The notes beneath the pieces are model-generated. The model was not told the DNA's origin, searched no databases, and worked only from the letters and a program-made list of their open reading frames with translations. A DNA stretch of 32,000 nt from Candidatus Methylomirabilis limnetica (GTDB lineage Bacteria > Methylomirabilota > Methylomirabilia > Methylomirabilales > Methylomirabilaceae). The stretch is taken from assembly GCF_003044035.1 (NCBI RefSeq), contig NZ_NVQC01000022.1:1-32000 (forward strand). The letters are read 5' to 3'. Shown here piece after piece: positions 3,779 to 24,499 of the stretch (position 1 is its first letter; every line of letters starts with the position of its first letter). Both the position numbers and the translations under genes were made by a program.

Positions 3779-5319
3779 CATCGGCGTCACTCTTCGGTTT
3801 GGACGAACTGGGGCGCGATCCGCACCTTCTGGCTGTCCAGGCGGTCGCGGCCGGCGGCAGGGTGGGCCCCCTGTATCTGGTCGGTGGGTACCTGCGTGAT
3901 TTTCTGCTTGGCTCCTTCGACGTGGCTAATGACAGGCGTGGCAGGGCGAAGCGGATCGACCTCGATCTGGTGATCTGGGGGAAACCGGAACTGTTCGGTC
4001 GCGATCTGGTCACGGCCCTGGAAGGCAGCCTCATTCGCCTCGAACCAGAGACGGTTCGGGCCATCGTTAGATCCCCGATCGGGGTCGAGGACAGGTCTGC
4101 AGGGATGATCGTCCAGATCGACATCAGTCGATCGAAGGGCGAGACAATCGAAGACGATTTGGCTCTCCGCGACTTTACGGTGAATGCCATGGCCGTGAGG
4201 CTCGACACCCGACACCCGACACCCGACACCCTGTCTTTAATTGATCCGGCGGGTGGGCTGAACGATCTAAAGGAAAAGCGCCTTCGAGCCCTTGCCCCAT
4301 CGGCATTCGATCGCGATCCGCTTCGCCTGATCAGGGCAATTCGCCTGGCTGCAGAGCTTGGCTTCACTATTGAGGAGACTACTCGGCAGTGGATCGTCGA
4401 GCGCGCATCGCTCCTCGGAACAGTAGCCGGGGAGCGTCTGCGAGACGAGCTGTTCAGGGTCCTCGATACGGTCCCCGCAACGCCTTGGATCGAGCACCTC
4501 GACGTCCTGCAGCTTCTGAAGGTGCTGGTCCCGGAGGTAGAGGCGCTCAAATCAGTTCCGGCAAGCATGCCGCATCGTCTGCCCCTCTGGGAACACTCGC
4601 TTCAGACGCTTCGGTCTGTCGAACTGCTGCTCACGAATCTTGAGCAGCTCTTTCCGGAAGACGCCCTCTGGTTACGCGAGCGGCTCGGCCTGGAGATCGA
4701 GGCTGGCGTCACCGAGGCCGCCATCCTCAAGCTGCTGGGGTTCCTGCACGACATCGGCAAGCCGGAGACTCGGAGCATACAACCAGATGGTCGAGTCCGG
4801 TTCCTGGGGCACGAGCAGGCCGGTCTGCCAGTCCTCACTCGCCTATGCGAACGCCTTCGCCTGGGTCGGCGGGCAACAAACCTCGTAACCAACATCGAGC
4901 GATATCATCTGCGGCCGATCCATCTCTCGAGTCTGGCAACGGTCACCGCCAGTGCGCAGTATCGTTTCTTCCGGGAGCTGGGTGATGTTGCCCCCGTTGT
5001 GCTGTTGCACTCCTGGGCGGATCTGCTGGCCACGATCGGTGGGGAAGCCGAGGAGTTCAGCCGGCATCAGGTATTCCTGCGCGAGGCGTTCCGATTCTAC
5101 AGAGCCGAGTTCATGGCAAGCCAGGTAAAGCCCATCGTGCGAGGAGACGATCTGATCAGGATGTTCGGCGTTGTGCCAGGCCCTTTCCTGGGATACGTAC
5201 TTGATCGCTTGCGGGAAGCTCAGGCGACTGGGCTCTTCAACAGCCGCGAGGATGCTCTGGCTTACGTCCAGGAACATCTTGTATCGTGGCAGCAGTCGTT
5301 CGAGGTGCGACCCTCTTGA
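3775..5319 (+). CDS. cca: tRNA nucleotidyltransferase/poly(A) polymerase family protein with C-terminal HD domain (CCA-adding enzyme-like)
   Basis: YLVGGYLRDFLLG and IDLDLV form the nucleotidyltransferase head. RDFTVNAM and DPLRLIRAIRLAAELGF are present. The HD motif is FLHDIGKP...FLGHEQAG. Confidence 0.75.
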   Translation: MTSASLFGLDELGRDPHLLAVQAVAAGGRVGPLYLVGGYLRDFLLGSFDVANDRRGRAKRIDLDLVIWGKPELFGRDLVTALEGSLIRLEPETVRAIVRSPIGVEDRSAGMIVQIDISRSKGETIEDDLALRDFTVNAMAVRLDTRHPTPDTLSLIDPAGGLNDLKEKRLRALAPSAFDRDPLRLIRAIRLAAELGFTIEETTRQWIVERASLLGTVAGERLRDELFRVLDTVPATPWIEHLDVLQLLKVLVPEVEALKSVPASMPHRLPLWEHSLQTLRSVELLLTNLEQLFPEDALWLRERLGLEIEAGVTEAAILKLLGFLHDIGKPETRSIQPDGRVRFLGHEQAGLPVLTRLCERLRLGRRATNLVTNIERYHLRPIHLSSLATVTASAQYRFFRELGDVAPVVLLHSWADLLATIGGEAEEFSRHQVFLREAFRFYRAEFMASQVKPIVRGDDLIRMFGVVPGPFLGYVLDRLREAQATGLFNSREDALAYVQEHLVSWQQSFEVRPS

Positions 5320-5351
5320 GTCACGCGCCAAAAATATGCGCGTCAAAACCA

Positions 5352-5380
5352 TTGACAAGCGTGAGTGCTTTTGTTAGACA
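5352..5380 (+). promoter_or_regulatory. sigma-70-type promoter for tRNA-Gly
   Basis: TTGACA (5352-5357), a 17-nt spacer, then TAGACA (5375-5380), about 10 nt before the tRNA 5' end. Confidence 0.55.
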
Positions 5381-5389
5381 GAAGAGGGC

Positions 5390-5464
<75 letters not shown>

Positions 5465-5468
5465 CGTT

Positions 5469-5503
5469 GGTCAGCGTTCAGCCATCAGCGGTCAGGTTTC
5501 AGC
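5469..5503. repeat. tandem heptamer array, 5 x NNTCAGC
   Basis: GGTCAGC GTTCAGC CATCAGC GGTCAGG TTTCAGC lies immediately 3' of the tRNA. It is the inverted counterpart of the array at 5723-5757. Confidence 0.75.
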
Positions 5504-5580
5504 TTCTGAAGTGCCCTCAAGTCTCCAAGGATTTCCCTATGCTTGGTCTGGGTTGTAAGCGTGGCACTGTACGGGAGGAC

Positions 5581-5624
5581 TGTAGGCCCTCTCGTAACGG
5601 GCGGGGATAAACCCCGCCCCTACA
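5581..5624. repeat. GC-rich palindromic hairpin element
   Basis: TGTAGG...GGGCGGGG-ATAAA-CCCCGCCC-CTACA: an 8-bp G/C stem with outer TGTAGG/CCTACA pairing. Confidence 0.5.
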
Positions 5625-5722
5625 AAGCGGAACTGCCGGGTTGAGTGAGTTCGGTTGACGCCGAGTCCTGTTGCTCATACACTGAACACGTTCGGGTTAT
5701 AGCCGTCAGTCTTCAGCGTGTT

Positions 5723-5757
5723 GCTGAGAGCTGATTGCTGATTGCTGGTTGCTGATT
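5723..5757. repeat. tandem heptamer array, 5 x GCTGANN
   Basis: GCTGAGA GCTGATT GCTGATT GCTGGTT GCTGATT ends 20 nt upstream of the pfp ATG. Confidence 0.75.
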
Positions 5758-5776
5758 TCCCGTCGAGGGGGGCCTC

Positions 5777-7015
5777 ATGAAAACGCTTGGCATACTGGTT
5801 GGAGGTGGCCCCGCGCCAGGCATTAATGGCGTGATCGCTGCTGCGACGATGGAGGCTCGCAACCATGGGGTACGCGTCCTCGGCTTCTACGATGGGTTCA
5901 AATGGCTTGCACGAGGCGACGTAAGCCACGTGATAGAGCTCGAAATCGATGAGGTGTCTCGGATCCATTTCGAAGGGGGTTCTATCCTTCGAACGGCCAG
6001 GGAGAATCCGACCAAATCCCCGGATGCGCTCCGAAATGTGGTCGAGGCGCTGAACAAATTGGAGGTGTCATGCCTGTTGACAATCGGGGGTGATGACACC
6101 GCCTTCGCGGCGTGTCGGCTATCGGAAGCCGTGCAGGGTCGAGTCGCCGTCGCGCATGTGCCGAAGACGATCGACAACGACCTCCCACTCCCGCAGGAGG
6201 TGGCGACGTTTGGCTTTACGACGGCTTGCAACCTGGGCAAAGAGATCGTTCAGAATCTAATGGAGGATGCGGTGACGGCGAATCGCTGGTTCTTCGTCAC
6301 AGTGATGGGCCGACGGGCGGGCCATCTGGCGCTTGGCATAGGAGGCTCTGCCGGCGCCACTTTAACGGTCATCGGAGAGGAGTTTCCAGAACCGAGGATC
6401 CCCCTTCAGACGCTGGTTGACATCCTGGAAGGCGCTATCATCAAGCGGCGCGCCTCCGGGAAGGGGTACGGCCTGGCGATTCTGAGCGAAGGGCTGGCCG
6501 ATAAACTTGATCCTGCTGATTTCGGCTCGGTTGAGCGGGACGGTTATGGGAATGTCCGTCTCTCGGAGCTTGTGTTGGGGCGAGTGCTGAAAGAGCGGGT
6601 TACTGAAAGCCTTCGCGCGCGAGGTGTCGATGTGACGATCGTAGCTAAAGATCTTGGCTATGAGCTCCGCTGCGCTCCACCCGGCGCACTGGATATCCTA
6701 TATTGCCGCGGTCTTGGCTATTGGGCCACCCGTTTTCTGTTGGACGGTCACACGGAGGCCATGGTGACCATCCAGGGGGGGAAGATGGTCCCAATCCCGT
6801 TTCAGCAGATGTTGGATCATCGGACAGGGAAGATCCGTGTCCGGTACGTTGATATCAACTCCGAGTCGTATCGGACGCTCCGGGCCTATATGATCCGCTT
6901 GGAGCCTCAAGACTTTGAGACGCCAGGGCAGATCGAGACGCTCGCGCATGGCGGGCGCCTCGATCAGGCTGAATTCGTAAGCCGGTTTAGTTATCTTGGC
7001 GATCGACGCTCATAG
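5777..7015 (+). CDS. pfp: 6-phosphofructokinase, pyrophosphate-dependent type by signature residues
   Basis: GILVGGGPAPGINGVI, TIGGDDT (Asp where ATP-PFKs have GGDG), VPKTIDNDL (Lys where ATP-PFKs have Gly) and MGRRAGHLAL. Confidence 0.85.
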   Translation: MKTLGILVGGGPAPGINGVIAAATMEARNHGVRVLGFYDGFKWLARGDVSHVIELEIDEVSRIHFEGGSILRTARENPTKSPDALRNVVEALNKLEVSCLLTIGGDDTAFAACRLSEAVQGRVAVAHVPKTIDNDLPLPQEVATFGFTTACNLGKEIVQNLMEDAVTANRWFFVTVMGRRAGHLALGIGGSAGATLTVIGEEFPEPRIPLQTLVDILEGAIIKRRASGKGYGLAILSEGLADKLDPADFGSVERDGYGNVRLSELVLGRVLKERVTESLRARGVDVTIVAKDLGYELRCAPPGALDILYCRGLGYWATRFLLDGHTEAMVTIQGGKMVPIPFQQMLDHRTGKIRVRYVDINSESYRTLRAYMIRLEPQDFETPGQIETLAHGGRLDQAEFVSRFSYLGDRRS

Positions 7016-7064
7016 AAGCTGCAGTAACCAGGAGGAGTATGTTTCTCGCGAAGGAGTCAGCACA

Positions 7065-7694
7065 ATGAGATACTGGAGGCGAAGCATTCACCGCATGGTC
7101 TTCGGCGTGGTGGTCGTGCTGGTTCCGTGTACGCTCTGGACGGGCTCTTTGGCTTTGCTCGGGACAGGCCCTTCGACGTGGCTCAGGACAGGCTTGGCTG
7201 ATGCGCAAGAGATCGTTTTCGTCAAGGCGCTAGAAGAGGCGAACAAAGCCATCCAGGAGGCGAGGGACTTCGAGGCGGATATCTATGCTCCGGGGGAGTT
7301 CGCCCTTGCCCTGAACTATTTAGCGCAGGCCAAGGATGAGGCAAAAACCTTCAGATCTGAGGCACAGCCGAAGCAGGATACTCACCTGTTCAGCGCCAGG
7401 AAGTCGGGGGAGGCGGTCAGCCTGCTAGCGGAGAAGGCACAGTACCAGGCGAAGGTGGCCGGGGCGAAGGCGATAGAGGTAAAATCCGACCGAGAGATCA
7501 CCGCCATCAAAGCGCAGGTCGCCGATACCTTTAACACGGATGTCAACCGAAGCTTTACCCCGTTGCGGGAGCAGTTGCTGGGCGAACTGGGCGCAATGGA
7601 AGCCGTGAGGAAAGAGGCCCGCAGGGCGAGGGCGCGGGCAGAGTCTGTGCTACACACATTGACGCTCGAAGGGCAGGCCACGCCGGCGCCATAG
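7065..7694 (+). CDS. membrane-anchored/secreted helical protein, DUF4398-like
   Basis: GAAGGAG lies 8 nt before ATG 7065, and the upstream ATG 6996 would overlap pfp. There is an N-terminal hydrophobic segment. The helical repeat [22 protein letters not shown] resembles DUF4398. Confidence 0.6.
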
Positions 7695-7774
7695 CAGGAA
7701 TTTTACCAGAGGCTTCAAAGCATTCGCAGTTTAGCGTCAAAGGCGCCGATGTTAGTCATGCGGAGAATAGAAGA

Positions 7775-8329
7775 ATGATCGAGCGATTAGTCAGGGATCT
7801 GCTGAAGGAAATCGGCGAGGATCCCGATCGGGAAGGATTGGTCAAGACCCCGGAGCGGGTAGAGCGGATGTTAGCCTTCCTCACATCCGGATACGGCAAA
7901 CAGGTGGATGATGTCCTGAACAAGGCGGTCTTCCAGGACAACTATGACGAGATCGTCGTGGTCAAGGATATCGACTTTTTTTCCTTGTGCGAGCATCATT
8001 TGCTTCCTTTTTTCGGTAAGTGCCACGTCGGCTACTTACCGGACGGTAAGATTGTCGGATTGAGCAAGCTGGTTCGGCTGGTGGAGATGTATAGTCGCCG
8101 ACTCCAGGTGCAGGAGCGCCTGACCTCTCAGATCGCGAACGCCCTTCTGGAGGCCCTACAACCACGCGGGGTGGCCGTCGTAATGGAAGCCCAACACCTC
8201 TGCATGATGATGCGCGGCGTAGAGAAACAGAATAGCAAGGCCGTAACCTCATCAATGCACGGGATCTTCCGCGAGCGGATCGAGAGCCGGAACGAGTTCA
8301 TGCAGTTGATCCGGTCGCACGCAACATAA
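7775..8329 (+). CDS. folE: GTP cyclohydrolase I
   Basis: [50 protein letters not shown] and HLCMMMRGV. Confidence 0.93.
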
Positions 8330-8397
8330 AGGAACTGATCTCTCTCCAAGGGTAAGGGAGTACGATTACGGAACACAACCCATTGCGGCTGCCCGCA

Positions 8398-8426
8398 TTG
8401 ACCGGAATCCATTATTCCACTATATT
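8398..8426 (+). promoter_or_regulatory. strong sigma-70-type promoter upstream of moaB-pup
   Basis: TTGACC (8398-8403), a 17-nt spacer, then TATATT (8421-8426). The spacer contains the inverted repeat GGAAT-CCATT-ATTCC. Confidence 0.6.
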
Positions 8427-8484
8427 ACAGATTGAGCGGGAACTCTACCAGGCTGGACAGAGACTTAATCTCATCGGGGAACCT

Positions 8485-8991
8485 ATGGGCGCTCACGATC
8501 ACCATACAGAGGCAAAGAAGGTTGGGCCGATCCGATACGTCAGGCTCAGTATCACCGATAGTCGCAAGTCGGAAGACGACCACTCAGGTCGGCTCATTGA
8601 ATCGCTGCTGAATGAGGCCGGGCATTACCAGGTCGCCTCGATGATCTTGAAGAATGATCCTAAAGGCCTGAGGGAGGTCATCAAGAAGCTGTGTGAAGAG
8701 GAGGTCGATCTGATCGTCATGACCGGTGGGACCGGGCTCAGTAAGAAGGATCAAACGATTGAAGCTATTAGTCCTTTACTGGACAAGGTGCTACCCGGTT
8801 TTGGCGAGCTGTTTCGAAGCCTGAGCTTCCACGAGGTCGGAAGCGCCGCCTTGATGAGCCGCGCCCTGTGCGGGACGGCAAAAGGAAAGGTGATTATAGC
8901 CCTCCCGGGATCAGTGGACGCAGTCCGTCTCGCCATGACGAAGCTCCTGATACCGGAGGTACAACACCTCGTCTGGGAGGCGTCTCGGTGA
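8485..8991 (+). CDS. moaB: molybdenum cofactor biosynthesis protein B (MoaB/MogA family)
   Basis: VRLSITDSRKSEDDHSG, DLIVMTGGTGLSKKDQT, PGFGELFR and ALPGSVDAV. The start is taken at ATG 8485, although the ORF is open from 8383. Confidence 0.85.
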   Translation: MGAHDHHTEAKKVGPIRYVRLSITDSRKSEDDHSGRLIESLLNEAGHYQVASMILKNDPKGLREVIKKLCEEEVDLIVMTGGTGLSKKDQTIEAISPLLDKVLPGFGELFRSLSFHEVGSAALMSRALCGTAKGKVIIALPGSVDAVRLAMTKLLIPEVQHLVWEASR

Positions 8992-9011
8992 GACGGGTGA
9001 AGGAGTAAGAC

Positions 9012-9209
9012 ATGGCGGAGCGGGAACGAAAGCAAAAGCGCGAGGCCGGCGATGCCTCACCTGAGGCGGCCGAGCCGAATCCCGAGACCGTACAAAAAGG
9101 GAAGAAGCTCAAGGAGGATCTTGACAAGCTCATGGATGAGATCGACGAGGTCCTTGAGGAGAACGCTGAGGAGTTCGTAAAAAGCTACGTCCAGCGCGGC
9201 GGAGAATAA
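9012..9209 (+). CDS. pup: prokaryotic ubiquitin-like protein Pup, C-terminal GGE
   Basis: 65 aa with a disordered N-terminus, then LKEDLDKLMDEIDEVLEENAEEFVKSYVQRGGE. This matches the actinobacterial Pup C-terminal helix (LLDEIDxVLEENAExFVxxYVQKGGQ). GAAGGAG lies 7 nt upstream of the ATG. Confidence 0.9.
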   Translation: MAERERKQKREAGDASPEAAEPNPETVQKGKKLKEDLDKLMDEIDEVLEENAEEFVKSYVQRGGE

Positions 9210-9230
9210 CCCTGCAGGGTGGAGTCACGT

Positions 9231-9437
9231 ATGCCTATCTACGAGTATCGTTGTACGAACTGCAGTCAGGTATTCGAAAAACTCGTCTTAGATCGCGATG
9301 CCTCAATAGAATGTCCACGCTGCCCAGGGGCGGCTGTAGAAAAGCAGTTTTCGGCCTTTAGCTTTAAAGGCGAGCGCAAGGTCATTGGCTCTGGTACCCT
9401 GGGTAGCGCGGGATCGAGTTGTGCGCCAAGCGGGTGA
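9231..9437 (+). CDS. FmdB-family zinc-ribbon protein (CxxC...CxxC)
   Basis: MPIYEYRCTNCSQVFE...IECPRCPG, with a Gly/Ser-rich tail. Confidence 0.85.
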   Translation: MPIYEYRCTNCSQVFEKLVLDRDASIECPRCPGAAVEKQFSAFSFKGERKVIGSGTLGSAGSSCAPSG

Positions 9438-9485
9438 GGGAGCTGTGCCAACTGACCTCGGCGTGCCCGAGGTAAGGCTGTACTA

Positions 9486-10304
9486 ATGGCAACCAACCCC
9501 GTCCGAGGGATATACGTATCAGATCACTCCTCCACCGGTCCCATCCGCACCCTCCTCCGGTTTCGGGAGCTACTCCGCCAGCTCGTCATTCGGGAAATCA
9601 AACTTCGCTATAAGCGGTCAGCGCTTGGGTTCGCCTGGACCGTGTTGAATCCCCTCCTCGCTATGGTCATCTTTACGATGGTCTTTTCCAGGTTATTCGG
9701 CAACCAGCCGCACTATCCGCTCTATGTGCTCACCGGCCTGCTGGGGTGGAACCTCTTCTCTCTGGGAACCTCCAGGGGCCTGGACAGCGTCGTCCTCAAC
9801 GGTTATATCATCCGAAAGGTCTTTGTTCCCAAAGCGATCTTCCCGGTCGCGGCCGTTGTTTCGCAGATCGTGAACTTTGTCTTTACGCTGGTCCCACTCT
9901 TTGTCTTGATGATGGCTCTTGGAGCGAGTTTCAGTCTGAACCTCCTGTGGCTGCCGGTCCCCCTTTTGAGCCTGACCTGTTTTGCCTTAGGCATTGCCTT
10001 ACTCCTGGGAACCTTCAATGTCTTCTTCCGGGACGTGAAGTACTTCTACGAGGCAGGGCTGCTAGCGTGGTTCTACGCCACCCCGATCTTCTATCCTGCG
10101 GAGATCATCCCAGATAAGTTCAAGCTCCTACTCCACCTCAATCCTATGTACGGTCTTCTGGAATCTCTCCGAGCTCCCATTTACATGGGAACAGCGCCGG
10201 CAGCGATCGCGCTGGTCTCCGGGCTCGCGCTCTCGCTGGCAATCCTCGCCGTCGGATGGATCGTCTTTCACCGATTCGAATCTCGATTCATCCATTATGT
10301 CTGA
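9486..10304 (+). CDS. ABC-2 type transporter permease (Wzm/TagG-like polymer exporter)
   Basis: N-terminal RELLRQLVIREIKLRYKRSALGFAWTVLNPLL motif and about 6 predicted TM segments. Confidence 0.85.
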   Translation: MATNPVRGIYVSDHSSTGPIRTLLRFRELLRQLVIREIKLRYKRSALGFAWTVLNPLLAMVIFTMVFSRLFGNQPHYPLYVLTGLLGWNLFSLGTSRGLDSVVLNGYIIRKVFVPKAIFPVAAVVSQIVNFVFTLVPLFVLMMALGASFSLNLLWLPVPLLSLTCFALGIALLLGTFNVFFRDVKYFYEAGLLAWFYATPIFYPAEIIPDKFKLLLHLNPMYGLLESLRAPIYMGTAPAAIALVSGLALSLAILAVGWIVFHRFESRFIHYV

Positions 10305-11148
10305 AGGACGAGTAAGCGGCTCAGTGTCTCAACTCGTTCAGACTTCCGAGGCAGTCGAGGTCCTTCAGACTTCAGCCCCAGTATCTCCACGAGGACGTTT
10401 GCCGGTCCTGGCGGTTGAAGATCTATCCATTCGTCTGCTATTGCATCGAGAGCGAATTCGGTCAATACGGGAGTACGTCATTCAGATGGTGAAAGGGCGT
10501 AAGAGCGAACGGGATGAGTTCTGGCCCCTTCGAGCGATCTCCTTTACAGTCCACTCAGGAGAGATTTTCGGTGTCATCGGGGCGAACGGGGCAGGAAAGA
10601 GTACGCTCCTGAAGGTGATCGCCGGCATCATCCCGCCCTCTGCTGGAAGTGTCGTAGTACGGGGACGGATCGCCCCCCTCATCGAACTAGGGGCCGGGTT
10701 CGACCCGTATCTGACCGGGCGAGAGAACATCTTCCTCTATGGATCCCTTCTGGGGTTTTCGCAGAAAGAGCTGGAAAGGCGATTTACCGGTATCGTCGAG
10801 TTCGCGGAGCTGGAGGAGTTTATCGATGTCCCCTTGATGAACTATTCGTCCGGGATGTCTGCACGCCTCGGGTTTGCGATTGCCACCGATGCGGAGCCGG
10901 ACCTCCTGCTGATCGACGAGCTGTTCTCGGTGGGGGACGCCGCCTTCAAGAAGAAGTGCGAGGCACGCATGGAAACGTTCAAGGCCAAAGGCGCCACGAT
11001 CCTGCTGGTCTCCCACGATCTCAAGCTGATCCAGGATACCTGCCATAGAGCCCTTTGCTTACATCATGGACAAGCCATCGCCGTCGGCCCAACCGACAAG
11101 GTCGTGGCCGAATACAACAAGCGCAGCGCCCCGTCATCCCCAGGCTAG
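10297..11148 (+). CDS. ABC transporter ATP-binding protein (Wzt/TagH-like), no C-terminal glycan-binding domain
   Basis: Walker A GANGAGKST, signature YSSGMSARL, Walker B LLLIDE and H-loop VSHD. The start overlaps the permease stop by 8 nt. Confidence 0.88.
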   Translation: MSEGRVSGSVSQLVQTSEAVEVLQTSAPVSPRGRLPVLAVEDLSIRLLLHRERIRSIREYVIQMVKGRKSERDEFWPLRAISFTVHSGEIFGVIGANGAGKSTLLKVIAGIIPPSAGSVVVRGRIAPLIELGAGFDPYLTGRENIFLYGSLLGFSQKELERRFTGIVEFAELEEFIDVPLMNYSSGMSARLGFAIATDAEPDLLLIDELFSVGDAAFKKKCEARMETFKAKGATILLVSHDLKLIQDTCHRALCLHHGQAIAVGPTDKVVAEYNKRSAPSSPG

Positions 11149-11175
11149 CGACGATGCATGGTGTATCGCTTACCA

Positions 11176-11380
11176 AATGAACTACCCCGCGGCAAGCTGC
11201 GGGGTAGCGTCTTCTGTTCTGGCCCGTCATTTCGTGCGTGACACGCCTGCCCCGTACTTGATACGGGGCCTGTCCCGTACTGGATACGGGAGAATCCAGT
11301 CGGGCCCGCTGGATACCGGCTTCCGCCGGTATGACGAACTCGCGGCAAGCCGCAGGGTATCGACCATCGACGAGAATGAA
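11176..11380. repeat. MITE/REP-like multi-hairpin element, copy B (inverted relative to copy A)
   Basis: Reverse-complement match to 739-930. It carries one extra hairpin (TCCCGTACTGGATACGGGA) and a ~17-nt insertion. It lies between convergent genes. Confidence 0.8.
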
Positions 11381-12122: not shown

Positions 12123-13505
12123 ATGGCAAAAACAAAGATCTTAATCGCAGAGGACGAACCTGCCTCCAGAGCGGGGCTCCAGGAGCTTCTCACCAGTTGG
12201 GGTTACACGGTCACTGCCGCTGCTAACGGTCAGGAGGCTCTGGAGAAGGCGGCCGAGTTGCAGCCCTCTCTCATCATCGCTGATCTCGTCATGCCAAAGA
12301 TGGACGGCCTCACGCTGCTGCGAACTCTCAAGAATGACGCTACCCTCCCCTCCCTGATCATTTTGACCGGCCAGGGGACCATCGAGACTGCGGTCCAGGC
12401 GATGCAAGAAGGGGCCTACGACTACCTCACCAAGCCGGTCGATGTCGGGCGACTCCGCGTCCTTGTAGAGAAAGCGCTCGAGCGTGGAGCTGTGCTGAAG
12501 GAGGTCAAGCTGCTGCGCCACCAGGTCCGTCACCTGGGCCGGTTCGGCCGACTGATTGGCAATACGCGTGCTATGCAGGAGGTCTACCGACTACTTGAAT
12601 TGTCGGCGCCTAGCACTGCGCCGGTCTTCATCTGGGGGGAAAGCGGAACCGGAAAGGAGTTGGCGGCCAGGACGATTCACGACCTCTCCCCACGGAAGCA
12701 AAGCCCCTTCGTCCCGATCAACTGCGCCGCTATTCCGGAAACGCTGCTGGAGAGCGAAGTCTTCGGTCACGAGAAAGGAGCGTTTACCGGCGCTACCGAG
12801 CGGAGAATGGGATGCTTTGAGCTGGCGGATGGCGGGACCATCTTTCTTGATGAGGTCGCGGAGATGAAGGTCTCCACCCAGGCCAAGTTCCTCCGGATCC
12901 TTCAGGAGGGCAGCTTTCGGCGGCTGGGCGGAGCCAGGGAAATCCACGTGGATGTCCGGGTGGTCGCCGCAACGAATAAGGATCCGGCGCAAACTGTCCA
13001 GGATGGATTGCTCCGCGAGGATCTCTACTATCGGCTGAACGTGTTCAGTGTCCACCTCCCACCCCTGCGGGAGCGGCGCGAGGACCTCTCACTCCTCATC
13101 CGATCGTTTATCGAGGAGTTTAAAGAGAAATATGGTACGGCGGTGCGCAGCGTGGACGCAGAAGCGCTCGCGCTCCTAACCAGGCACGATTGGCCCGGCA
13201 ACGTCCGGGAGCTTCGGAATGTGCTGGAGCGGGCCGTCCTTGTGGCCCAGGGAAACATGATCACCTCAGCCGATCTGCCGCCGAACTTCCCCAGTCAGCG
13301 TCCTGGGCCGACCCCGGAGATCAACATCCCCGTCGGGATCACGATTGATGCGGCAGAAAAAGCCTTGATTCTCACAACGCTGGAACGCACGAACCAGAAC
13401 AAGACCCGGGCTGCGGAGATCCTTGGGGTCAGCCTGAAGACGCTGCACAACAAGTTAGCCCGCTATCGGGAAGAAGCCTCCACTTTGGCTAACGCCCAGG
13501 AATAA
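12123..13505 (+). CDS. sigma-54-dependent response regulator (NtrC family: receiver + AAA+ + Fis HTH)
   Basis: Receiver ILIAEDE...IIADLVMPKMDG...KP. AAA+ domain GESGTGKELAARTIH, GAFTGA and WPGNVRELRNV. HTH RAAEILGVSLKTLHNKL. Confidence 0.92.
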   Translation: MAKTKILIAEDEPASRAGLQELLTSWGYTVTAAANGQEALEKAAELQPSLIIADLVMPKMDGLTLLRTLKNDATLPSLIILTGQGTIETAVQAMQEGAYDYLTKPVDVGRLRVLVEKALERGAVLKEVKLLRHQVRHLGRFGRLIGNTRAMQEVYRLLELSAPSTAPVFIWGESGTGKELAARTIHDLSPRKQSPFVPINCAAIPETLLESEVFGHEKGAFTGATERRMGCFELADGGTIFLDEVAEMKVSTQAKFLRILQEGSFRRLGGAREIHVDVRVVAATNKDPAQTVQDGLLREDLYYRLNVFSVHLPPLRERREDLSLLIRSFIEEFKEKYGTAVRSVDAEALALLTRHDWPGNVRELRNVLERAVLVAQGNMITSADLPPNFPSQRPGPTPEINIPVGITIDAAEKALILTTLERTNQNKTRAAEILGVSLKTLHNKLARYREEASTLANAQE

Positions 13506-13511
13506 GTCCAC

Positions 13512-15317
13512 ATGACACTCGGCATCCGAGGCAAGGAAATCCTCGGCATCAGTCTTCTGGTCTTCCTGATCGTCTCGCTCGCGTTAGTTGTTCACATTTC
13601 GACTACTACCCGCCTGGTCGTTCAGCATGCGGCGGAAAAGGGCAAACTGCAGGCTCAGCAGATCTTCTCCGGCAGCACTCGGGTGATGGCTCGTGCACGG
13701 GGGAGCCGTCCAGAGGTTGCTCTGCGACATGACCAAGAGCTCCGCGCGCTTCTCGATGCCAGCATCGGCTATTCCCCGCACCTGGTATATGCCATGATCA
13801 CTGATCGCTCGGATACAGTCCTCATGCACAGCCAGCGTTCCCACGAAGGGCACAAGGCCCCATCCCGGACGAAGATCGAACAGTTGCAGGAGATGAACCC
13901 TCTTCGTCAGCTCCTGGCGCTAGCCCGCCAGCGCCAGGTATTTGAGACGACGCTGCCTCTCAGCCTCAACGACCGGCCCTTCGGGGCGATCCGACTCGGG
14001 CTGGCTGGAAGCCTCCTGTGGAACGAACTCTCACCCGCCATCTGGGGGAGCCTGCTACTGGCGCTGTTCACCTTCCCGCTGGCCTGGGCCGTGGCCTTTG
14101 GCCTCTCCAGCCTTGTCCTGGTGCCGTTGCGCCAGATTGCCCAAGGCGTTGACCGGATGGCGCGCGGCGAGTTCGACACGCCAGTCGCGTTTGATCGTCA
14201 TGATGAAGTCGGGGAGATTGCCGAAAAACTCAACCTCCTGGGACGCCAGCTCCAGGAGGACCGGTCCTCCCTGATGAGTGAAAAGACCAGGCTGGAAGGG
14301 ATCGTGCATTGCCTCGAAGACGCCATCATTCTGCTGAACAGAGAGCAGGCGGTCATCTTCGCCAATCCGGTGGCCGAGGCCCTGCTGGCCTGCCCCCTCA
14401 TGAATGCTGTCGGTCAATCGTTGGGGCATATCCTGGGGGAGGCTCACCCCTTAGCCGAGGCAGTGGGCGAAGTCTTCCTGCGCCAACAGCCGGTAAGAAA
14501 CCTTGCGCTTACGGTGCCGGGCGACCGCGACACACCCCTTGATATCCTGGCCTCCGCCTACCCAATCCTGGACAAGAACGGTGTGGTCGGGGGAATGATC
14601 CTCTTAAAAAACACCGAACCGCTCCGACAGATCCAGTCGCTCGTGGACTATTCTCGAAAGCTAGCCGACCTTGGGAAGCTCACCTCGGGTGTTGCCCACG
14701 AAGTCAAAAATCCACTGAACGCCATGATCATTCATCTCGAGCTGTTAAAACAGAAGCTCAACCGCCCTACGGAGGATGTAGCTCGAAGCCTGGACGTGCT
14801 GGGGAAAGAGATTTATCGCCTCGACCGTGTGGTGCAGGGCTTTCTTCGTTTTGTCCGTCCTCAGACCCTTGAGCTTCGCCCTCTGGACCCGAACAAGCTA
14901 CTGCAGGAGGTCGCCCAGTTGACCGAAGCACAAGGAACGTCTCGGGGGATCGCGTTCAGCTTTTGTCTTGATGAGGAGATTCCTCCGATCAACGCCGATC
15001 ATGAGTTACTTCGGCAGGCCTTCCTCAACCTAGTCCTGAATGCCTGTCAGGCTATGCCAGACGGAGGAACGGTAACCCTTACGACAGACCGGACCGCTGA
15101 GGGCAGGATCTGTGCCCACGTAATCGATCAGGGGGTAGGCATCCCTCCTGAGGACCTCGACAAGATCTTCCGTCTCTATTATACTACCAAGACGGATGGA
15201 AATGGGATCGGGCTTTCGTTGGTCTACCGGATCGTTCAGATGCACGGTGGGACTATCGAGGTGGACTCGAAGATGGGGCAAGGGACCACGATGACGGTCA
15301 GCTTTCCTACCTCTTAG
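13512..15317 (+). CDS. sensor histidine kinase (TM-periplasmic/TM-HAMP-PAS-HisKA-HATPase)
   Basis: Two hydrophobic segments. H-box SGVAHEVKNPLN. N box LNLVLNACQAM. G boxes DQGVGI and GNGIGLS. Confidence 0.9.
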   Translation: MTLGIRGKEILGISLLVFLIVSLALVVHISTTTRLVVQHAAEKGKLQAQQIFSGSTRVMARARGSRPEVALRHDQELRALLDASIGYSPHLVYAMITDRSDTVLMHSQRSHEGHKAPSRTKIEQLQEMNPLRQLLALARQRQVFETTLPLSLNDRPFGAIRLGLAGSLLWNELSPAIWGSLLLALFTFPLAWAVAFGLSSLVLVPLRQIAQGVDRMARGEFDTPVAFDRHDEVGEIAEKLNLLGRQLQEDRSSLMSEKTRLEGIVHCLEDAIILLNREQAVIFANPVAEALLACPLMNAVGQSLGHILGEAHPLAEAVGEVFLRQQPVRNLALTVPGDRDTPLDILASAYPILDKNGVVGGMILLKNTEPLRQIQSLVDYSRKLADLGKLTSGVAHEVKNPLNAMIIHLELLKQKLNRPTEDVARSLDVLGKEIYRLDRVVQGFLRFVRPQTLELRPLDPNKLLQEVAQLTEAQGTSRGIAFSFCLDEEIPPINADHELLRQAFLNLVLNACQAMPDGGTVTLTTDRTAEGRICAHVIDQGVGIPPEDLDKIFRLYYTTKTDGNGIGLSLVYRIVQMHGGTIEVDSKMGQGTTMTVSFPTS

Positions 15318-15737: not shown

Positions 15738-15975
15738 CGAGTAATAATTACCCCCCCTCGTACTGACCTGGTAAGCGCCCCTTTCAGGCACGCGATCCTT
15801 TAGAATTCAGGTTATTCAGCGCTTCACCGTCCCATCCCCAGAGAAAACTTTACTCGCCAACTCCCCAGCTCTGACCTCCCGCCGGAAACGATTGAGGCTA
15901 TCGGACGTCGCACGCCATAGTGTAAGTCGCTATGTTTAAAGGGGGTAAACGTTTATGTAGTCGAGCCCAGATTAA

Positions 15976-15991
15976 TGGCATGCCACTTGCC
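15976..15991 (+). promoter_or_regulatory. sigma-54 (-24/-12) promoter
   Basis: TGGCAT-GCCAC-TTGCC matches TGGCAC-N5-TTGCW with the correct GG-N10-GC spacing. It lies about 30 nt upstream of ATG 16022. Confidence 0.7.
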
Positions 15992-16021
15992 CTTCCTATT
16001 GAAAGAGAGGAGGAGGGGACA

Positions 16022-16408
16022 ATGAGCGCGCAACGGTTGAACGATGCAAGGCAGAAGATCCTAGTCGTAGATGACGATTGTACGCTGCGGGAATTGTTAG
16101 CAGACTATCTTGAGAGGGTGGGCTTCGAGGTGCGAACAGCACCAGACGGTCGCGCTGGGCTGGACGCCTTGGACGGGTGCCACTTCGACCTCATCCTAAC
16201 GGACTACCGAATGTCTGCAATGACTGGCATCGAGATGGCTGCGGTGATCCGCAGGTCCGATACAGTTACACCTATCATCCTGATCACAGGCGACTTCTAC
16301 GAGCTTAACGCTGAGATCGTGGCGCAAGCCGGGATTACAAGGATGCTGCCAAAGCCTCTCAAGCTTAACGAGCTCTTAACATGTGTTCAAACAGCAAAGT
16401 CAACATAG
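16022..16408 (+). CDS. single-domain response regulator receiver (CheY-like)
   Basis: ILVVDDD, DLILTDYRMSAMTG, ILITG and LPKPL. GGAGGAGGGG lies just upstream. Confidence 0.88.
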   Translation: MSAQRLNDARQKILVVDDDCTLRELLADYLERVGFEVRTAPDGRAGLDALDGCHFDLILTDYRMSAMTGIEMAAVIRRSDTVTPIILITGDFYELNAEIVAQAGITRMLPKPLKLNELLTCVQTAKST

Positions 16409-16454
16409 CAAGGTAAATGCTATCTCGACAACTCGACAAAAGGAGACAAGCCAG

Positions 16455-16694
16455 ATGAGCAGAGCAATGTCCAAACGGATCGCGTTAGGGGTGCTCGTGC
16501 TCGGGTTAACCACGGGGTGCGCCGGGATGTCGACGCGTCAGCAGCGTGCCTTGAGCGGAGGCGCCATTGGCGCGGCCGGTGGGGCTGTCGTAGGCGTCAT
16601 GGCCGGTAGTCCGGCTACCGGCGCCATTGTGGGCGGAGCGATAGGAACGGCTACAGGCGCCATGTGGGATGATATCAAGAAATCGCTGAAGTGA
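16455..16694 (+). CDS. glycine-zipper lipoprotein (YMGG/OsmB-like)
   Basis: Lipobox LTTGC. Glycine-zipper run GGAIGAAGGAVVGVMAGSPATGAIVGGAIGTATG. AAGGAG Shine-Dalgarno is present. Confidence 0.8.
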   Translation: MSRAMSKRIALGVLVLGLTTGCAGMSTRQQRALSGGAIGAAGGAVVGVMAGSPATGAIVGGAIGTATGAMWDDIKKSLK

Positions 16695-16752
16695 GCATCG
16701 GGCACTGACTTCAAGTACTGGCCCCATCACCCCACTGCTCATTCGGTTTCTA

Positions 16753-16804
16753 CGGCCTCTCCGATTTGACTCCCCTTCCCGAGTCGGAGAGGCCGTCTTT
16801 TTTC
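16753..16804 (+). terminator. Rho-independent terminator
   Basis: A 12-bp stem, CGGCCTCTCCGA (16753-16764) pairing with TCGGAGAGGCCG (16784-16795), is followed by TCTTTTTT. Confidence 0.8.
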
Positions 16805-16972
16805 CTCAACTCCTCCATCCTCGTCTTGTTACTGCCAGAAAGCGGACCAATTAACTTAGCCAAGATAATAGGATTTTACAATTTGACTTATAGGATTTAA
16901 GCCGATAGTGTTAGACTCATCGTTTACCCTATTTAATGACAGACGAGAAGCCTAGCCTTCAGGAGGGTTTTC

Positions 16973-17848
16973 ATGCGCCATCGATGGATCTGTGTCTGGT
17001 TGTCAAGTTTGGTGGCTGTTGTGGCTAGCCTCGGATTGCTAAGTCCTGCCTGGTCTGAAGCGCCAAAAGAGCTGCGGGTTTCGGCTATCCCGGACGAGAA
17101 CCCGACTGAACTGATGCGGATCTATACGCCCTTCGCTGAGTATCTTAGCAAAGAACTGGGCATCCCGGTCAGATACTATCCAGTAGTGGACTACGCTGCC
17201 ACCGTCGAAGCCCTGGCGGCTAAGAAGCTGGACATGGTCTGGTACGGCGGATTTACCTTCGTCCAGGCTCGAAAGCGGACAGGCAATGCGATCCCGCTGG
17301 TGAGCCGGGAAGAGGACCTGCGCTTTCACAGTAAATTCATCACCAGGCCGGAAACCGGCATCAAGACCCTGGCCGACTTAAAGGGCAAGACCTTCTCCTT
17401 CGGAAGCGTCAGCTCGACATCAGGTCACCTCATGCCACGCTATTTCCTTCTGCAGAATGGGATAGACCCCGAAAAAGACTTCGCGAAATTCAGCTTCAGC
17501 GGGGCTCACGATGCCACCGCCCTCTGGGTAGAGAGCGGAAAAGTTGACGCCGGGGCCTTGAATGAGGCAGTGTGGGAAAAGCTCGTTCAGGCCAAAAAGG
17601 TTGACCTCAATAAGGTGCAGGTGTTCTGGACGACACCCCCCTACATCGACTATGTCTGGACCGTGCGGGGCGATCTGGACAGCAGTCTCGTAGAAAAGAT
17701 CGCCACCGCCTTCACGAAGCTCAACTATAGCAACCCAGTGGATAGAGCCCTCATGGACCTTCAGCGTACGAAGGGATACGTCCGCGTCAAGGTCGAGCAG
17801 TTCAAGCCGGCTGAAGATGCAGCGATCGCCGCTGGGCTGCTTCAGTAG
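16973..17848 (+). CDS. phnD: phosphonate/phosphite ABC transporter substrate-binding protein
   Basis: Signal peptide, then PhnD-family motifs: RVSAIPDENPTEL, YAATVEALAAKKLDMVWYGGFTFV and SSTSGHLMPRYFL. Confidence 0.85.
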   Translation: MRHRWICVWLSSLVAVVASLGLLSPAWSEAPKELRVSAIPDENPTELMRIYTPFAEYLSKELGIPVRYYPVVDYAATVEALAAKKLDMVWYGGFTFVQARKRTGNAIPLVSREEDLRFHSKFITRPETGIKTLADLKGKTFSFGSVSSTSGHLMPRYFLLQNGIDPEKDFAKFSFSGAHDATALWVESGKVDAGALNEAVWEKLVQAKKVDLNKVQVFWTTPPYIDYVWTVRGDLDSSLVEKIATAFTKLNYSNPVDRALMDLQRTKGYVRVKVEQFKPAEDAAIAAGLLQ

Positions 17849-20654: not shown

Positions 20655-21626
20655 ATGGAAAATGAACGATATACTTGCATTACGCTAAGGAACGCTCTGG
20701 ACACGCTGGCCGACGATATCCGGCAGGCACTCACCGCGCCCAGGAAGTGGCTCCCCTGCAAATACTTCTACGATCCGACAGGGAACGCCCTGTTCGAGCA
20801 AATCTGCGAGTTGCCAGAGTATTACCTGACCAGAACCGAAACTGCCATCTTGAAGCAGCACGCTGTTCACATCATCGGGCGCTGTCCATCGGACCTCACG
20901 CTGGTCGAACTGGGTAGCGGCAGCTCCACGAAGAGCCGATATCTGATCGAGTCATGCCTGGCTCGGCAGCAGGATCTCACCTACTATGCCGTTGACATCT
21001 CGCCAGCCGGATTGGAGAATGGAACCCGACAGCTATTGGACAACTACCCGCGCCTGAGGGTTGTGGGGGTGGCGGCCGAATTTGCCGATGGGCTTGGCTA
21101 CCTTACCACACACGCAAGCGGACCTCGGTTAGTCGCGTTTCTTGGATCCACTATCGGCAACTTCACGGAAGAAGATATCGCCCGGTTTTTCACGATGCTC
21201 CGTCGCCATCTTCGTCCGATGGATCGGCTCCTGCTAGGCGTTGATCTGATCAAAGACCCGGCTGTCCTTGAAGCAGCCTATGACGATGCCCAAGGCGTCA
21301 CCGCGAAGTTCAATCTCAACATTCTCGCCCGGCTCAATCGTGAGTTATCTGCAAACTTCGATCTGGCAACATTTCGGCACCGGGCGGTGTGGAATCACGA
21401 GCGTGGCCGAATAGAGATGAACCTGGTCAGTGTACGCAATCAACGCGTCAGGATCGGCGATCTGAACCTTGACATCGATTTTCGCCAGGATGAAACGATC
21501 CACACAGAAAACTGCTACAAGTACTCCCAGTCGGGAATGGAATCGTTGCTCACGCGCCACGGATTTCAGGTTCTTGGTCACTTTAGCGATCCTCGGGATC
21601 AATTTTGTCTTTTCCTGGCCTCTTGA
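20655..21626 (+). CDS. egtD: L-histidine N-alpha-methyltransferase (hercynine synthase, EgtD family)
   Basis: Similarity to mycobacterial EgtD runs the full length: KYFYDPTGNALFEQICELPEYYLTRTE, LVELGSGSS.K, FLGSTIGNF, LLLGVDLIKD, AYDDAQGVTAKFNLNILARLNRELSANFDL, RIEM and FCLFLA. Confidence 0.88.
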   Translation: MENERYTCITLRNALDTLADDIRQALTAPRKWLPCKYFYDPTGNALFEQICELPEYYLTRTETAILKQHAVHIIGRCPSDLTLVELGSGSSTKSRYLIESCLARQQDLTYYAVDISPAGLENGTRQLLDNYPRLRVVGVAAEFADGLGYLTTHASGPRLVAFLGSTIGNFTEEDIARFFTMLRRHLRPMDRLLLGVDLIKDPAVLEAAYDDAQGVTAKFNLNILARLNRELSANFDLATFRHRAVWNHERGRIEMNLVSVRNQRVRIGDLNLDIDFRQDETIHTENCYKYSQSGMESLLTRHGFQVLGHFSDPRDQFCLFLAS

Positions 21627-21668
21627 TCATCCCGCCACGATGGTTCCGATCTCCTTTTCTCGCCGGCC

Positions 21669-22436
21669 ATGAACGACCTGCCTACGATTGAGTTTGATCA
21701 CGTACACTACCGAGCCCCTAGCGGCGCGGTGGTTCTTGATGATGTCAGCTTCACCGTGAAGCGCGGCGAGGTGCTCGTCCTGGTGGGCCGCAGCGGCGTC
21801 GGTAAGACGACCATCCTGCGGCTGATCAATCGTCTCCTCGTACCGATCGCCGGCGAGGTTCGGGTCGAGGGTCGGGCAACGCCCGAGTGGGACCCGATCG
21901 CCTTGCGTCGCCGAACCGGCTATGTGCTGCAGGAGGTCGGCCTGTTTCCACACATGACCATCGGCCGCAACATCGGGGTCGTGCCGCGCCTGGACGGGTG
22001 GCCGGAACCCCGTATCCATGCGCGCTGCCAGGAGCTGCTGGAGCTTGTCGGGCTTGATCCATCCACCTTTGAAGGACGGTTCCCCCACGAGCTCTCAGGT
22101 GGCCAACGCCAACGAGTGGGGTTCGCGAGGGCGATTGCCGCTGACCCCCCCGTAATCTTGATGGATGAGCCGTTCGGTGCGCTCGATCCGCTCACGCGCG
22201 CCGAACTGCATCGCGAGTTCCACCGCATTCAGGATCAGCTCCGCAAGACCGTCGTCATGGTGTCGCACGACATGGGTGAAGCCTTTGCGCTCGCCACGAA
22301 ACTAGGGGTCCTGGATCAGGGACGCCTCGTGGCGCTTGATACTCCAGAAGTCATCGCCCGCGCCGGCGATCCAAGAATTCGGATGTTCCTCGATGCACTG
22401 CCGCCAGTGCCGGTCATCGCCCGTGACACTGATTAA
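21669..22436 (+). CDS. quaternary-amine (OpuC/OsmV/EgtV-like) ABC transporter ATP-binding protein, no CBS domains
   Basis: Walker A GRSGVGKTT, Q-loop YVLQEVGLFPHMT, signature LSGGQRQRV, Walker B ILMDEP and H-loop VSHD. Confidence 0.85.
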   Translation: MNDLPTIEFDHVHYRAPSGAVVLDDVSFTVKRGEVLVLVGRSGVGKTTILRLINRLLVPIAGEVRVEGRATPEWDPIALRRRTGYVLQEVGLFPHMTIGRNIGVVPRLDGWPEPRIHARCQELLELVGLDPSTFEGRFPHELSGGQRQRVGFARAIAADPPVILMDEPFGALDPLTRAELHREFHRIQDQLRKTVVMVSHDMGEAFALATKLGVLDQGRLVALDTPEVIARAGDPRIRMFLDALPPVPVIARDTD

Positions 22437-24064: not shown

Positions 24065-24499
24065 TTATGGCGCGATGAGACGGTCTGCGCCCTCAGGCCA
24101 CACGCGTTTGAAGTCGTCAACATTGAATGTTAACACGTGATCAACCCTGGATTTCTTCGCTGCCATGACGATAATGGCATCATAAATCACGCCTCCGGAT
24201 AGTCCCAGATCAACCATCCGCTTGACGACAGAGCTGTACTCCGAAGGTGAAAGGGAAACCATCTTTGCCAGGGTTTCAACATCACTGTGGATCAGATGTC
24301 CGGCTATCCATGGCGTAATCCGTGGGCTTATGGGCAACGTGGCCAACCCCGCATAAAGCTCAGCCAGCGTATGACCGGCAACCAGCATATCGAACTCTTT
24401 CGCCCTTGCCCGTTTGAGCCATCGGAAAGCAGGGGCATGCAGGGGGTGCGGTCCTACAATCGCGGCCACAAGGACAGAGGTATCAAAAAGGATTTTCAT
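24065..24499 (-). CDS. vapC: PIN-domain toxin
   Basis: MKILFDTSVLVAA (first acidic residue), then later D/E positions typical of PIN domains. The start forms an ATGA overlap with the upstream antitoxin stop. Confidence 0.85.
   Translation of the reverse strand: MKILFDTSVLVAAIVGPHPLHAPAFRWLKRARAKEFDMLVAGHTLAELYAGLATLPISPRITPWIAGHLIHSDVETLAKMVSLSPSEYSSVVKRMVDLGLSGGVIYDAIIVMAAKKSRVDHVLTFNVDDFKRVWPEGADRLIAP

Follow-up and report, generated by a model that had tools for sequence, protein, structure and literature searches.

The pup gene of Candidatus Methylomirabilis limnetica lies apart from its Pup-proteasome enzyme operon and next to a Ruc-family zinc-ribbon gene

Introduction

In the Pup-proteasome system of Mycobacterium tuberculosis, the closest described counterpart of the system considered here, the genes follow the order mpa-dop-pup-prcB-prcA-pafA, an arrangement of Actinobacteria and Nitrospirota. 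An early study stated pup to be invariably adjacent to a gene of the PafA family (Iyer et al. 2008, PMC2588565). Here, we describe a pup gene, whose product is Pup (prokaryotic ubiquitin-like protein), that lies in a different setting. It is found in a 32-kb stretch of DNA (hereafter the window) of Candidatus Methylomirabilis limnetica (NC10/Methylomirabilota), between a molybdenum-cofactor gene of the MogA/MoaB family and the gene for a small zinc-ribbon protein of the FmdB/Ruc family. A previous reading of the window, made from the sequence alone (the sequence-only reading), had noted this array and raised the possibility of a Pup decoupled from its ligase or from the proteasome. We propose that the gene is very probably a functional pup, which serves a complete, canonical Pup-proteasome system encoded elsewhere in the same genome as the result of a split locus.

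The zinc-ribbon neighbor also has a described counterpart. Ruc of M. tuberculosis binds zinc, carries a disordered tail and becomes a holdase chaperone upon oxidation; its regulation is shared with chaperone genes, and its induction by heat needs the Pup-proteasome system (PMC7448276). The FmdB/Ruc family is listed in most bacterial phyla, the tails of Ruc-family proteins span 7–61 residues, and in many phyla ruc lies near genes for chaperones and proteases, a list from which Pup is absent (PMC7448276). Homologues of Dop and PafA have been mentioned in passing for NC10 draft genomes (PMC7947786), and public annotation already names the Pup-pathway proteins of M. limnetica. In our literature search, no paper dealt with pupylation in either Methylomirabilis or Rokubacteria, nor did any link Pup with FmdB/Ruc.

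Results

The window encodes a canonical Pup

The array and the genes that follow it are:

8485..8991, forward strand: moaB, MogA/MoaB-family molybdenum-cofactor protein, 168 residues, first gene of the array (Pfam MoCF_biosynth)
9012..9209, forward strand: pup, prokaryotic ubiquitin-like protein, 65 residues, C-terminal GGE (matches to Pfam Pup, TIGR03687 and PDB entries)
9231..9437, forward strand: FmdB/Ruc-family zinc-ribbon protein, 68 residues, CxxC...CxxC and a Gly/Ser-rich tail (Zn_ribbon_8, TIGR02605)
9486..11148, forward strand: ABC-2 permease and ATPase genes, at the position of mpa-dop-prcB-prcA-pafA in relatives (Pfam ABC2_membrane and ABC_tran)

The open reading frame (ORF) at 9012–9209 on the forward strand starts with ATG and encodes the product MAERERKQKREAGDASPEAAEPNPETVQKGKKLKEDLDKLMDEIDEVLEENAEEFVKSYVQRGGE. 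With 65 residues and the C-terminus ...YVQRGGE, it falls within the 50–90 residues and carries the G-G-[E/Q] ending that define the family. It scored 76.2 bits against the Pfam Pup hidden Markov model (HMM; PF05639, cutoff 27) and 62 bits against NCBIfam TIGR03687 (cutoff 41.45), above the threshold in both cases. M. tuberculosis Pup in the PDB entries 3M9D, 7PX9 and 4BJR aligned with the window Pup from end to end (E ~1e-11), and residues 28–65 aligned free of gaps to the M. tuberculosis Pup chains of 3M9D, 3M91, 7PX9 and 4BJR. The C-terminal halves of the two proteins are nearly identical (LMDEIDEVLEENAEEFVKSYVQRGGE in the window, LLDEIDDVLEENAEDFVRAYVQKGGQ in M. tuberculosis), and the conserved C-terminal helix region, responsible for Mpa and PafA binding in the Pup family, appears from this alignment to be present. 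The assignment of a canonical Pup with a terminal GGE in the sequence-only reading is thus upheld.

A search for homologues found 2043 Pup sequences, the closest named ones being from Methylomirabilota. Among the 120 closest, 96 end in GGE and 23 in GGQ, such that 119 of the 120 carry one or the other. Most close homologues share the GGE ending, which is nothing special, and GGE-ending Pup occurs in Actinobacteria too. Since the tag already ends in GGE, deamidation is not needed. The ratio of nonsynonymous to synonymous substitution rates (dN/dS) of pup, 0.06–0.12, indicates purifying selection.

The array is as tight as first described, with the moaB stop codon 20 nt before the pup ATG and the zinc-ribbon ATG 21 nt past the pup stop codon. 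A GGAG Shine-Dalgarno motif lies 7 nt 5' of the pup start, and the zinc-ribbon gene likewise has a GGAG motif at Shine-Dalgarno distance. The three genes moaB, pup and the zinc-ribbon gene are probably transcribed together.

Four proteins of the window match M. limnetica entries exactly (PTL35560, PTL35563, PTL35565 and PTL35569, on a 374-kb contig), PTL35563 being the moaB product. Together with the Methylomirabilota/NC10 labels of the closest Pup homologues, these matches confirm the non-actinobacterial, diderm host that had been deduced from the window. A sigma-54 activator was also found by Pfam scan.

The Pup-proteasome enzymes are encoded on another contig

The window does not hold a canonical locus, in which pup stands beside a PafA/Dop-family gene and prcBA. 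No Mpa, Dop, PafA, PrcA or PrcB turned up when 28 of the larger ORFs were scanned with Pfam and the entire window was searched by tblastn with these five proteins, as the sequence-only reading had also reported. We then turned to the rest of the genome, which is a draft metagenome-assembled genome. Using PafA of a relative (locus L021) as the query, we retrieved a protein (P0254) named 'Pup--protein ligase' of Candidatus Methylomirabilis limnetica (PTL37074). An earlier scan of genome contigs with a relative's PafA had returned no genome of the genus Methylomirabilis among the matches listed, which we do not read as absence. The locus of this ligase (L101) holds the following genes, each scored against its NCBIfam equivalog model:

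4853-6676: mpa (717, cutoff 504.75)
6833-8317: dop (566.9, cutoff 492.3)
8346-9167: prcB (306.3, cutoff 191.9)
9172-9861: prcA (316.6, cutoff 139.05)
10001-11359: pafA (TIGR03686, 578.3, cutoff 551.3)

Thus, Mpa, Dop, PrcB, PrcA and PafA are all encoded in M. limnetica, and with Pup all six components of the M. tuberculosis system are found, each above its family cutoff. The enzyme genes stand in the same order as in M. tuberculosis. PafA, PrcB and PrcA of L101 are the exact M. limnetica entries PTL37074, PTL37072 and PTL37073, Mpa is WP_193450618, and Dop and PTL37071 share a 90%-identity cluster. PrcB keeps the G|TT maturation and active-site junction with the catalytic threonine, and Mpa ends in ...GHYL, a docking-type YL motif.

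The M. limnetica enzyme entries sit on a 108-kb contig. The contigs that bear pup measure 242 kb and 374 kb and all those that bear pafA 83–108 kb, which places the two loci on different contigs; on the 242-kb contig, no pafA was found in the ~234 kb downstream of pup. A second pup near the enzyme operon was sought within L101 from the ORF listing, with the Pup HMM and among ORFs ending in GG[EQ], and none was found. Relative to the M. tuberculosis locus, therefore, pup lies outside the dop-prcB slot, in a moaB-pup-ruc array on another contig, and the system differs further in its GGE tag and its diderm NC10 host. The idea of a ligase-less or non-proteasomal Pup does not survive these results. 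At the genomic level, the question of whether a PafA/Dop ligase is encoded elsewhere is answered by PTL37074, and that of whether degradation is proteasomal by the intact prcB, prcA and Mpa of the same species.

Two features of the enzyme operon deserve mention in their own right. Dop and PafA of M. limnetica share a nearly identical central block of ~150–170 residues, with few differences, that extends to about RKGCSFDD. Over 382 aligned residues the two proteins are 69% identical; the corresponding figure for Dop and PafA of a Manganitrophaceae locus is 47%. The DNA identity of dop and pafA is 82–87% over 766–1071 nt in L101, L019 (where the pair lies at 12650-14143 and 15785-17143) and L023, and 70–75% in L021, L026 and L040. 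The pattern resembles that expected of gene conversion between dop and pafA, the depupylase and ligase genes. In addition, L101 carries a 256-bp direct repeat (1739-1992 and 4357-4611, 88% identical), which is absent from the window. The repeat flanks a gene of 596 codons directly 5' of mpa, whose product shows only a faint Pfam match to VCPO_2nd (vanadium chloroperoxidase-type), and could be the trace of an insertion or of a breakpoint of rearrangement.

Gene order in relatives connects the two loci

To compare the arrangement across relatives, nine marker proteins were located in 100 retrieved loci, and gene context was looked up in two additional cases. In L019, whose Pup is 72% identical to that of the window, the genes mpa, dop, prcB, prcA and pafA come immediately after the moaB-pup-zinc-ribbon array, and the same contiguous moaB-pup-ruc-mpa-dop-prcB-prcA-pafA cluster is found in L021 and L023; the gene 3' of the zinc ribbon in all three is mpa. 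L102 and L103, with a Pup 82% identical to that of the window, have this cluster with an insert of ~5 kb between the zinc-ribbon gene and mpa, comprised of four reverse-strand genes, for an NfeD/SDH protease and for the E2, E1beta and E1alpha subunits of a 2-oxoacid dehydrogenase. The fully split arrangement is seen in the window and in a sister Methylomirabilis lineage (L014-L016), where moaB-pup-ruc is followed by unrelated genes. The array is therefore conserved in relatives, in several of them directly upstream of the enzyme operon, and the ORF is neither confined to M. limnetica nor without PafA and Dop in its genome. We conclude that pup has the look of an orphan because a genome rearrangement split the locus.

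Other orders exist among the loci compared. L026 reads moaB-ruc-mpa-dop-pup-prcB-prcA-pafA, with pup in the canonical slot, and L028 and L029 have the order dop-pup-prcB. In a neighbor-joining tree of PafA, the canonical-position and relocated-pup types are intermixed. In L014, a small Ub-Mut7C gene (ubiquitin-fold, MoaD/ThiS-like; weak Pfam match) lies at 13846-14100, 3.6 kb downstream of pup-ruc and after a gene for aldehyde:ferredoxin oxidoreductase, and is unrelated to Pup.

Separation of pup from the enzyme genes is not particular to this genus. About 45 Nitrospira-type clusters of the order mpa-dop-prcB-prcA-pafA (L035, L038, L042-L100) have a dop-prcB gap of ~40–70 nt that does not contain pup, and in the Nitrospiraceae/Nitrospirales loci there was no Pup HMM match and no small ORF ending in GG[EQ] within 10 kb on either side. 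In Manganitrophaceae and some further Nitrospirota, the canonical slot is occupied by pup. The M. limnetica locus thus resembles other Gram-negative split loci, namely a Rokubacteria-type enzyme operon that lacks pup (L040) and the ~45 Nitrospiraceae loci, but the Methylomirabilota loci alone show the new site of pup and its neighbor. Judged from these gene orders, decoupling of pup from the enzyme operon is common outside Actinobacteria.

A Ruc-type gene nearly always accompanies pup in Methylomirabilota

The sequence-only reading had asked whether the zinc-ribbon protein is functionally linked to tagging, a question well put, as its gene adjoins pup almost throughout the phylum. It comes directly downstream of pup in all of the Methylomirabilales arrangements that we examined. 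To look beyond this order, metagenomes were scanned with a Rokubacteria-type Pup (P0065) and then with the Pup and Ruc HMMs, which gave 80 loci. A Ruc-like gene lies 4–30 nt downstream of pup in 79 of these, and the contig of the remaining one stops 98 nt past pup. Enzyme genes of the Pup-proteasome system were found in the flanks of none of the 80. The upstream gene encodes a dCTP deaminase in 36 of the 80 loci, as matched by a short-form query, and a long two-domain dCTP deaminase in L171, while the downstream genes vary; examples are dcd-pup-ruc-POR or dcd-pup-ruc-lysR (L011 and L171). The Rokubacteria-type operon of L040 has the order mpa-dop-prcB-prcA-pafA, and its Dop shares a 90%-identity cluster with PYM31620, labelled 'Candidatus Rokubacteria'; this operon and the pup-ruc pair come from separate loci rather than from one demonstrated genome. 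In the marker map of 100 loci, those Nitrospirota clusters in which pup has the canonical position showed no ruc. We interpret pup-ruc as a lineage-specific and probably co-expressed combination of the tag and a proteostasis factor.

The zinc-ribbon protein resembles Ruc

The ATG at 9231 is the best start for the zinc-ribbon gene since the same start is found in all homologues. The product, with the N-terminus MPIYEYRCTNC...CPRC, scored 51.8 bits against Zn_ribbon_8 (PF09723) and 58.1 bits against TIGR02605 (cutoff 31.3). The N-terminal 40 residues of M. tuberculosis Ruc (Rv0991c), rebuilt from the primer table of PMC7448276, scored 50.4 bits against Zn_ribbon_8, placing both proteins in one Pfam family. 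Both start with MP.Y.Y.C..C and share the CxxC-N16/17-CxxC spacing and a low-complexity, hydrophilic tail, but the tail of the window protein is short (~25 residues), Gly/Ser-rich and has an extra cysteine. Cys8, Cys11, Cys28 and Cys31 are invariant in the homologue alignments, and dN/dS relative to L014 is 0.13, which indicates purifying selection.

In the AlphaFold2 model, residues 1–43 form a three-stranded ribbon predicted with confidence (predicted local distance difference test, pLDDT, ~85). The Gly/Ser-rich tail of residues 44–68 follows, and 10-residue blocks from residue 41 onwards have a mean pLDDT of 49–61. The model is consistent with the hydrophilic, disordered tail of the Ruc family, low pLDDT being a proxy for disorder only. 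A fold search of the PDB with the model returned nothing significant (best E 0.28, generic ribbons of MCM and of RNA polymerase subunit P), and a profile search of the PDB with the protein returned generic zinc fingers only. By its likeness to Ruc, the protein is a candidate for zinc binding and for oxidation-activated holdase activity. A homologue search, using an index based on shared words, found 42 close relatives; a more distant FmdB protein (P0361, locus L105) is not adjacent to pup. The fixed position of the window-type ruc beside pup sets it apart from the neighborhoods of the published Ruc survey (PMC7448276).

The upstream side of the array

Two features precede moaB:

7775..8329, forward strand: folE, GTP cyclohydrolase I, a conserved neighbor outside the Pup system (Pfam GTP_cyclohydroI, 259 bits)
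8398..8426, forward strand: sigma-70-like promoter motif TTGACC-17-TATATT, 5' of moaB (consensus scan; putative function)

The moaB product scored 92.8 bits against Pfam MoCF_biosynth and 107.3 against the generic molyb_syn domain model TIGR00177 (passing its cutoff of 85.35), and 146 bits against the moaB_proteo equivalog TIGR02667, under the cutoff of 222.4. The gene at 8485-8991 is, from these scores, best called a MogA/MoaB-family protein. Its dN/dS relative to L014 is 0.08, indicating purifying selection. A 202-residue version that starts with TTG is unlikely, as the sequence that it adds upstream is divergent and includes a 3-nt indel.

A strong promoter had been proposed 5' of moaB. The motif is there, and the sister-species loci L014 and L016 keep the -35 hexamer and the spacing (TTGACC-17-TATCAT); its strength is not borne out, since a consensus scan gave one site in 2.1 kb compared with 1.0 ± 1.0 in shuffled sequence, which is the chance level. 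We therefore dropped the motif as evidence. On comparison with L102 (9188-9457), the region of the motif (8383-8484) matches a small ORF at its 3' end. This ORF, of 53–89 codons and lacking a Pfam match, lies between parA and moaB in L019 and L102, and the window seems to have lost parA together with most of it.

folE lies 5' of moaB-pup in L014, L019, L021, L023 and L102, immediately so in L014 and farther off in the others. moaB closes this pterin-related neighborhood, which comprises folE and, in L019, two PTPS genes.

Other features of the window

At 20655-23976, a gene for an EgtD-type histidine-specific methyltransferase (Methyltransf_33, 368 bits) lies directly 5' of a glycine-betaine-type ATP-binding cassette (ABC) transporter, made up of an ATPase and a permease-OpuAC fusion, which suggests a hercynine/ergothioneine-related or betaine module. 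A tRNA-Gly(CCC) lies at 5390-5464, between a CCA-adding/poly(A) polymerase-like gene and pfk, and a PIN-domain (toxin-like) gene is on the minus strand at 24065-24499.

Discussion

We consider it very probable that the ORF at 9012–9209 is the working pup of M. limnetica, separated from the enzymes that it serves. The reading is carried by the identities of the genes, the presence of all components in one species, the series of gene orders in relatives and the purifying selection on pup. In such a system PafA would ligate Pup-GGE directly to substrate lysines, Mpa would recognize and unfold the pupylated proteins and the 20S PrcAB core would degrade them, whereas Dop would take Pup off as a depupylase rather than deamidate it. 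The orphan pup would be the end state of a series that runs from the contiguous cluster, through the intrusion of four reverse-strand genes between ruc and mpa, to two separate loci. Several points weigh against this account. Pupylation in M. limnetica is so far a prediction from its genes; the draft state of the genome means that the distance from pup to the enzyme genes is only bounded, and a second copy of pup may lie elsewhere in it; and the PafA tree, in which the arrangement types are intermixed, gives no clean order, direction or number of pup moves.

The physical distance of pup from the enzyme genes could also be taken to mean that it is a relic, or that it has been redeployed for a non-degradative role. 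Pupylation in the absence of a 20S proteasome is known in some actinobacteria (Corynebacterium). We judge this very improbable for M. limnetica, given the strong purifying selection on pup and, in the same species, an intact prcB with its catalytic threonine, an intact prcA and an Mpa ending in YL. A functional coupling between MoaB and Pup, in which MoaB might for instance be a regulated target or be co-regulated with nitrate or nitrite metabolism, is improbable as well. The moaB-pup gap is kept at 20–53 nt in the window, L014, L019, L021 and L102, and moaB still adjoins ruc-mpa in L026, where pup is in the canonical slot, but Rokubacteria-type loci have dCTP deaminase upstream instead. The adjacency is most simply the inherited boundary between two clusters in a single order; confined to Methylomirabilales, it looks more like inherited synteny.

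A further alternative is that the zinc-ribbon gene and pup constitute a two-gene functional module of their own, with the Ruc-like protein acting as a lineage-specific cofactor of pupylation. Joint action of the two products, and not inherited synteny alone, would then preserve the pair. It could serve as a redox-gated holdase that passes damaged proteins to PafA/Mpa, as a stabilizer of disordered Pup or as a regulator of tagging. The pair persists in 79 of the 80 Rokubacteria-type loci and while its flanks change, from moaB and ABC genes in the window, to a reverse-strand DUF1015 gene after ruc in L014, to mpa in L019, and to dcd with POR or lysR in L011 and L171. Moreover, ruc stays directly 5' of mpa in L026 despite the canonical-slot pup, it is under purifying selection, and Ruc of M. 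tuberculosis is a zinc-binding chaperone activated by oxidation, whose induction under heat relies on the Pup-proteasome system (PMC7448276). Against this, the support is genomic association alone, the contexts form about two order-level synteny groups and thus reflect few independent events, the canonical-slot clusters of Nitrospirota have no ruc, and the FmdB/Ruc family is very widespread and mostly found away from pup, as is P0361 in L105. Shared stress regulation could by itself account for co-transcription. We therefore regard the module as possible but doubtful, and a direct mechanistic role of the zinc-ribbon protein in pupylation as doubtful to unlikely. The split locus, with a complete enzyme set on another contig, is the reading that we adopt.

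The case of an apparently ligase-less Pup is thereby settled: an NC10 methane oxidizer has the full system, and the chemistry of tagging is unchanged. The generalization of 2008 that pup adjoins a PafA-family gene (PMC2588565) fails in M. limnetica, and Methylomirabilota is at least one Gram-negative phylum in which the textbook rule of pup beside dop/pafA breaks down. Where pup lies outside the enzyme operon, searches by gene neighborhood will therefore miss it. As a hypothesis, the pup-adjacent Ruc-family gene could tie redox-regulated chaperoning to pupylation. The boldest form of this hypothesis, which we think unlikely, is that in Methylomirabilota (NC10 Methylomirabilales and Rokubacteria) pup left the enzyme operon and was fixed as one half of a two-gene cassette, the other half encoding a redox-sensitive Ruc-type protein that is a new component of pupylation. 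If that were so, the zinc-ribbon protein would be a redox-gated adaptor or holdase coupling oxidative damage to Pup tagging, or else a chaperone of free Pup, and pupylation would be stress-gated in the abundant Methylomirabilota of soil and freshwater.

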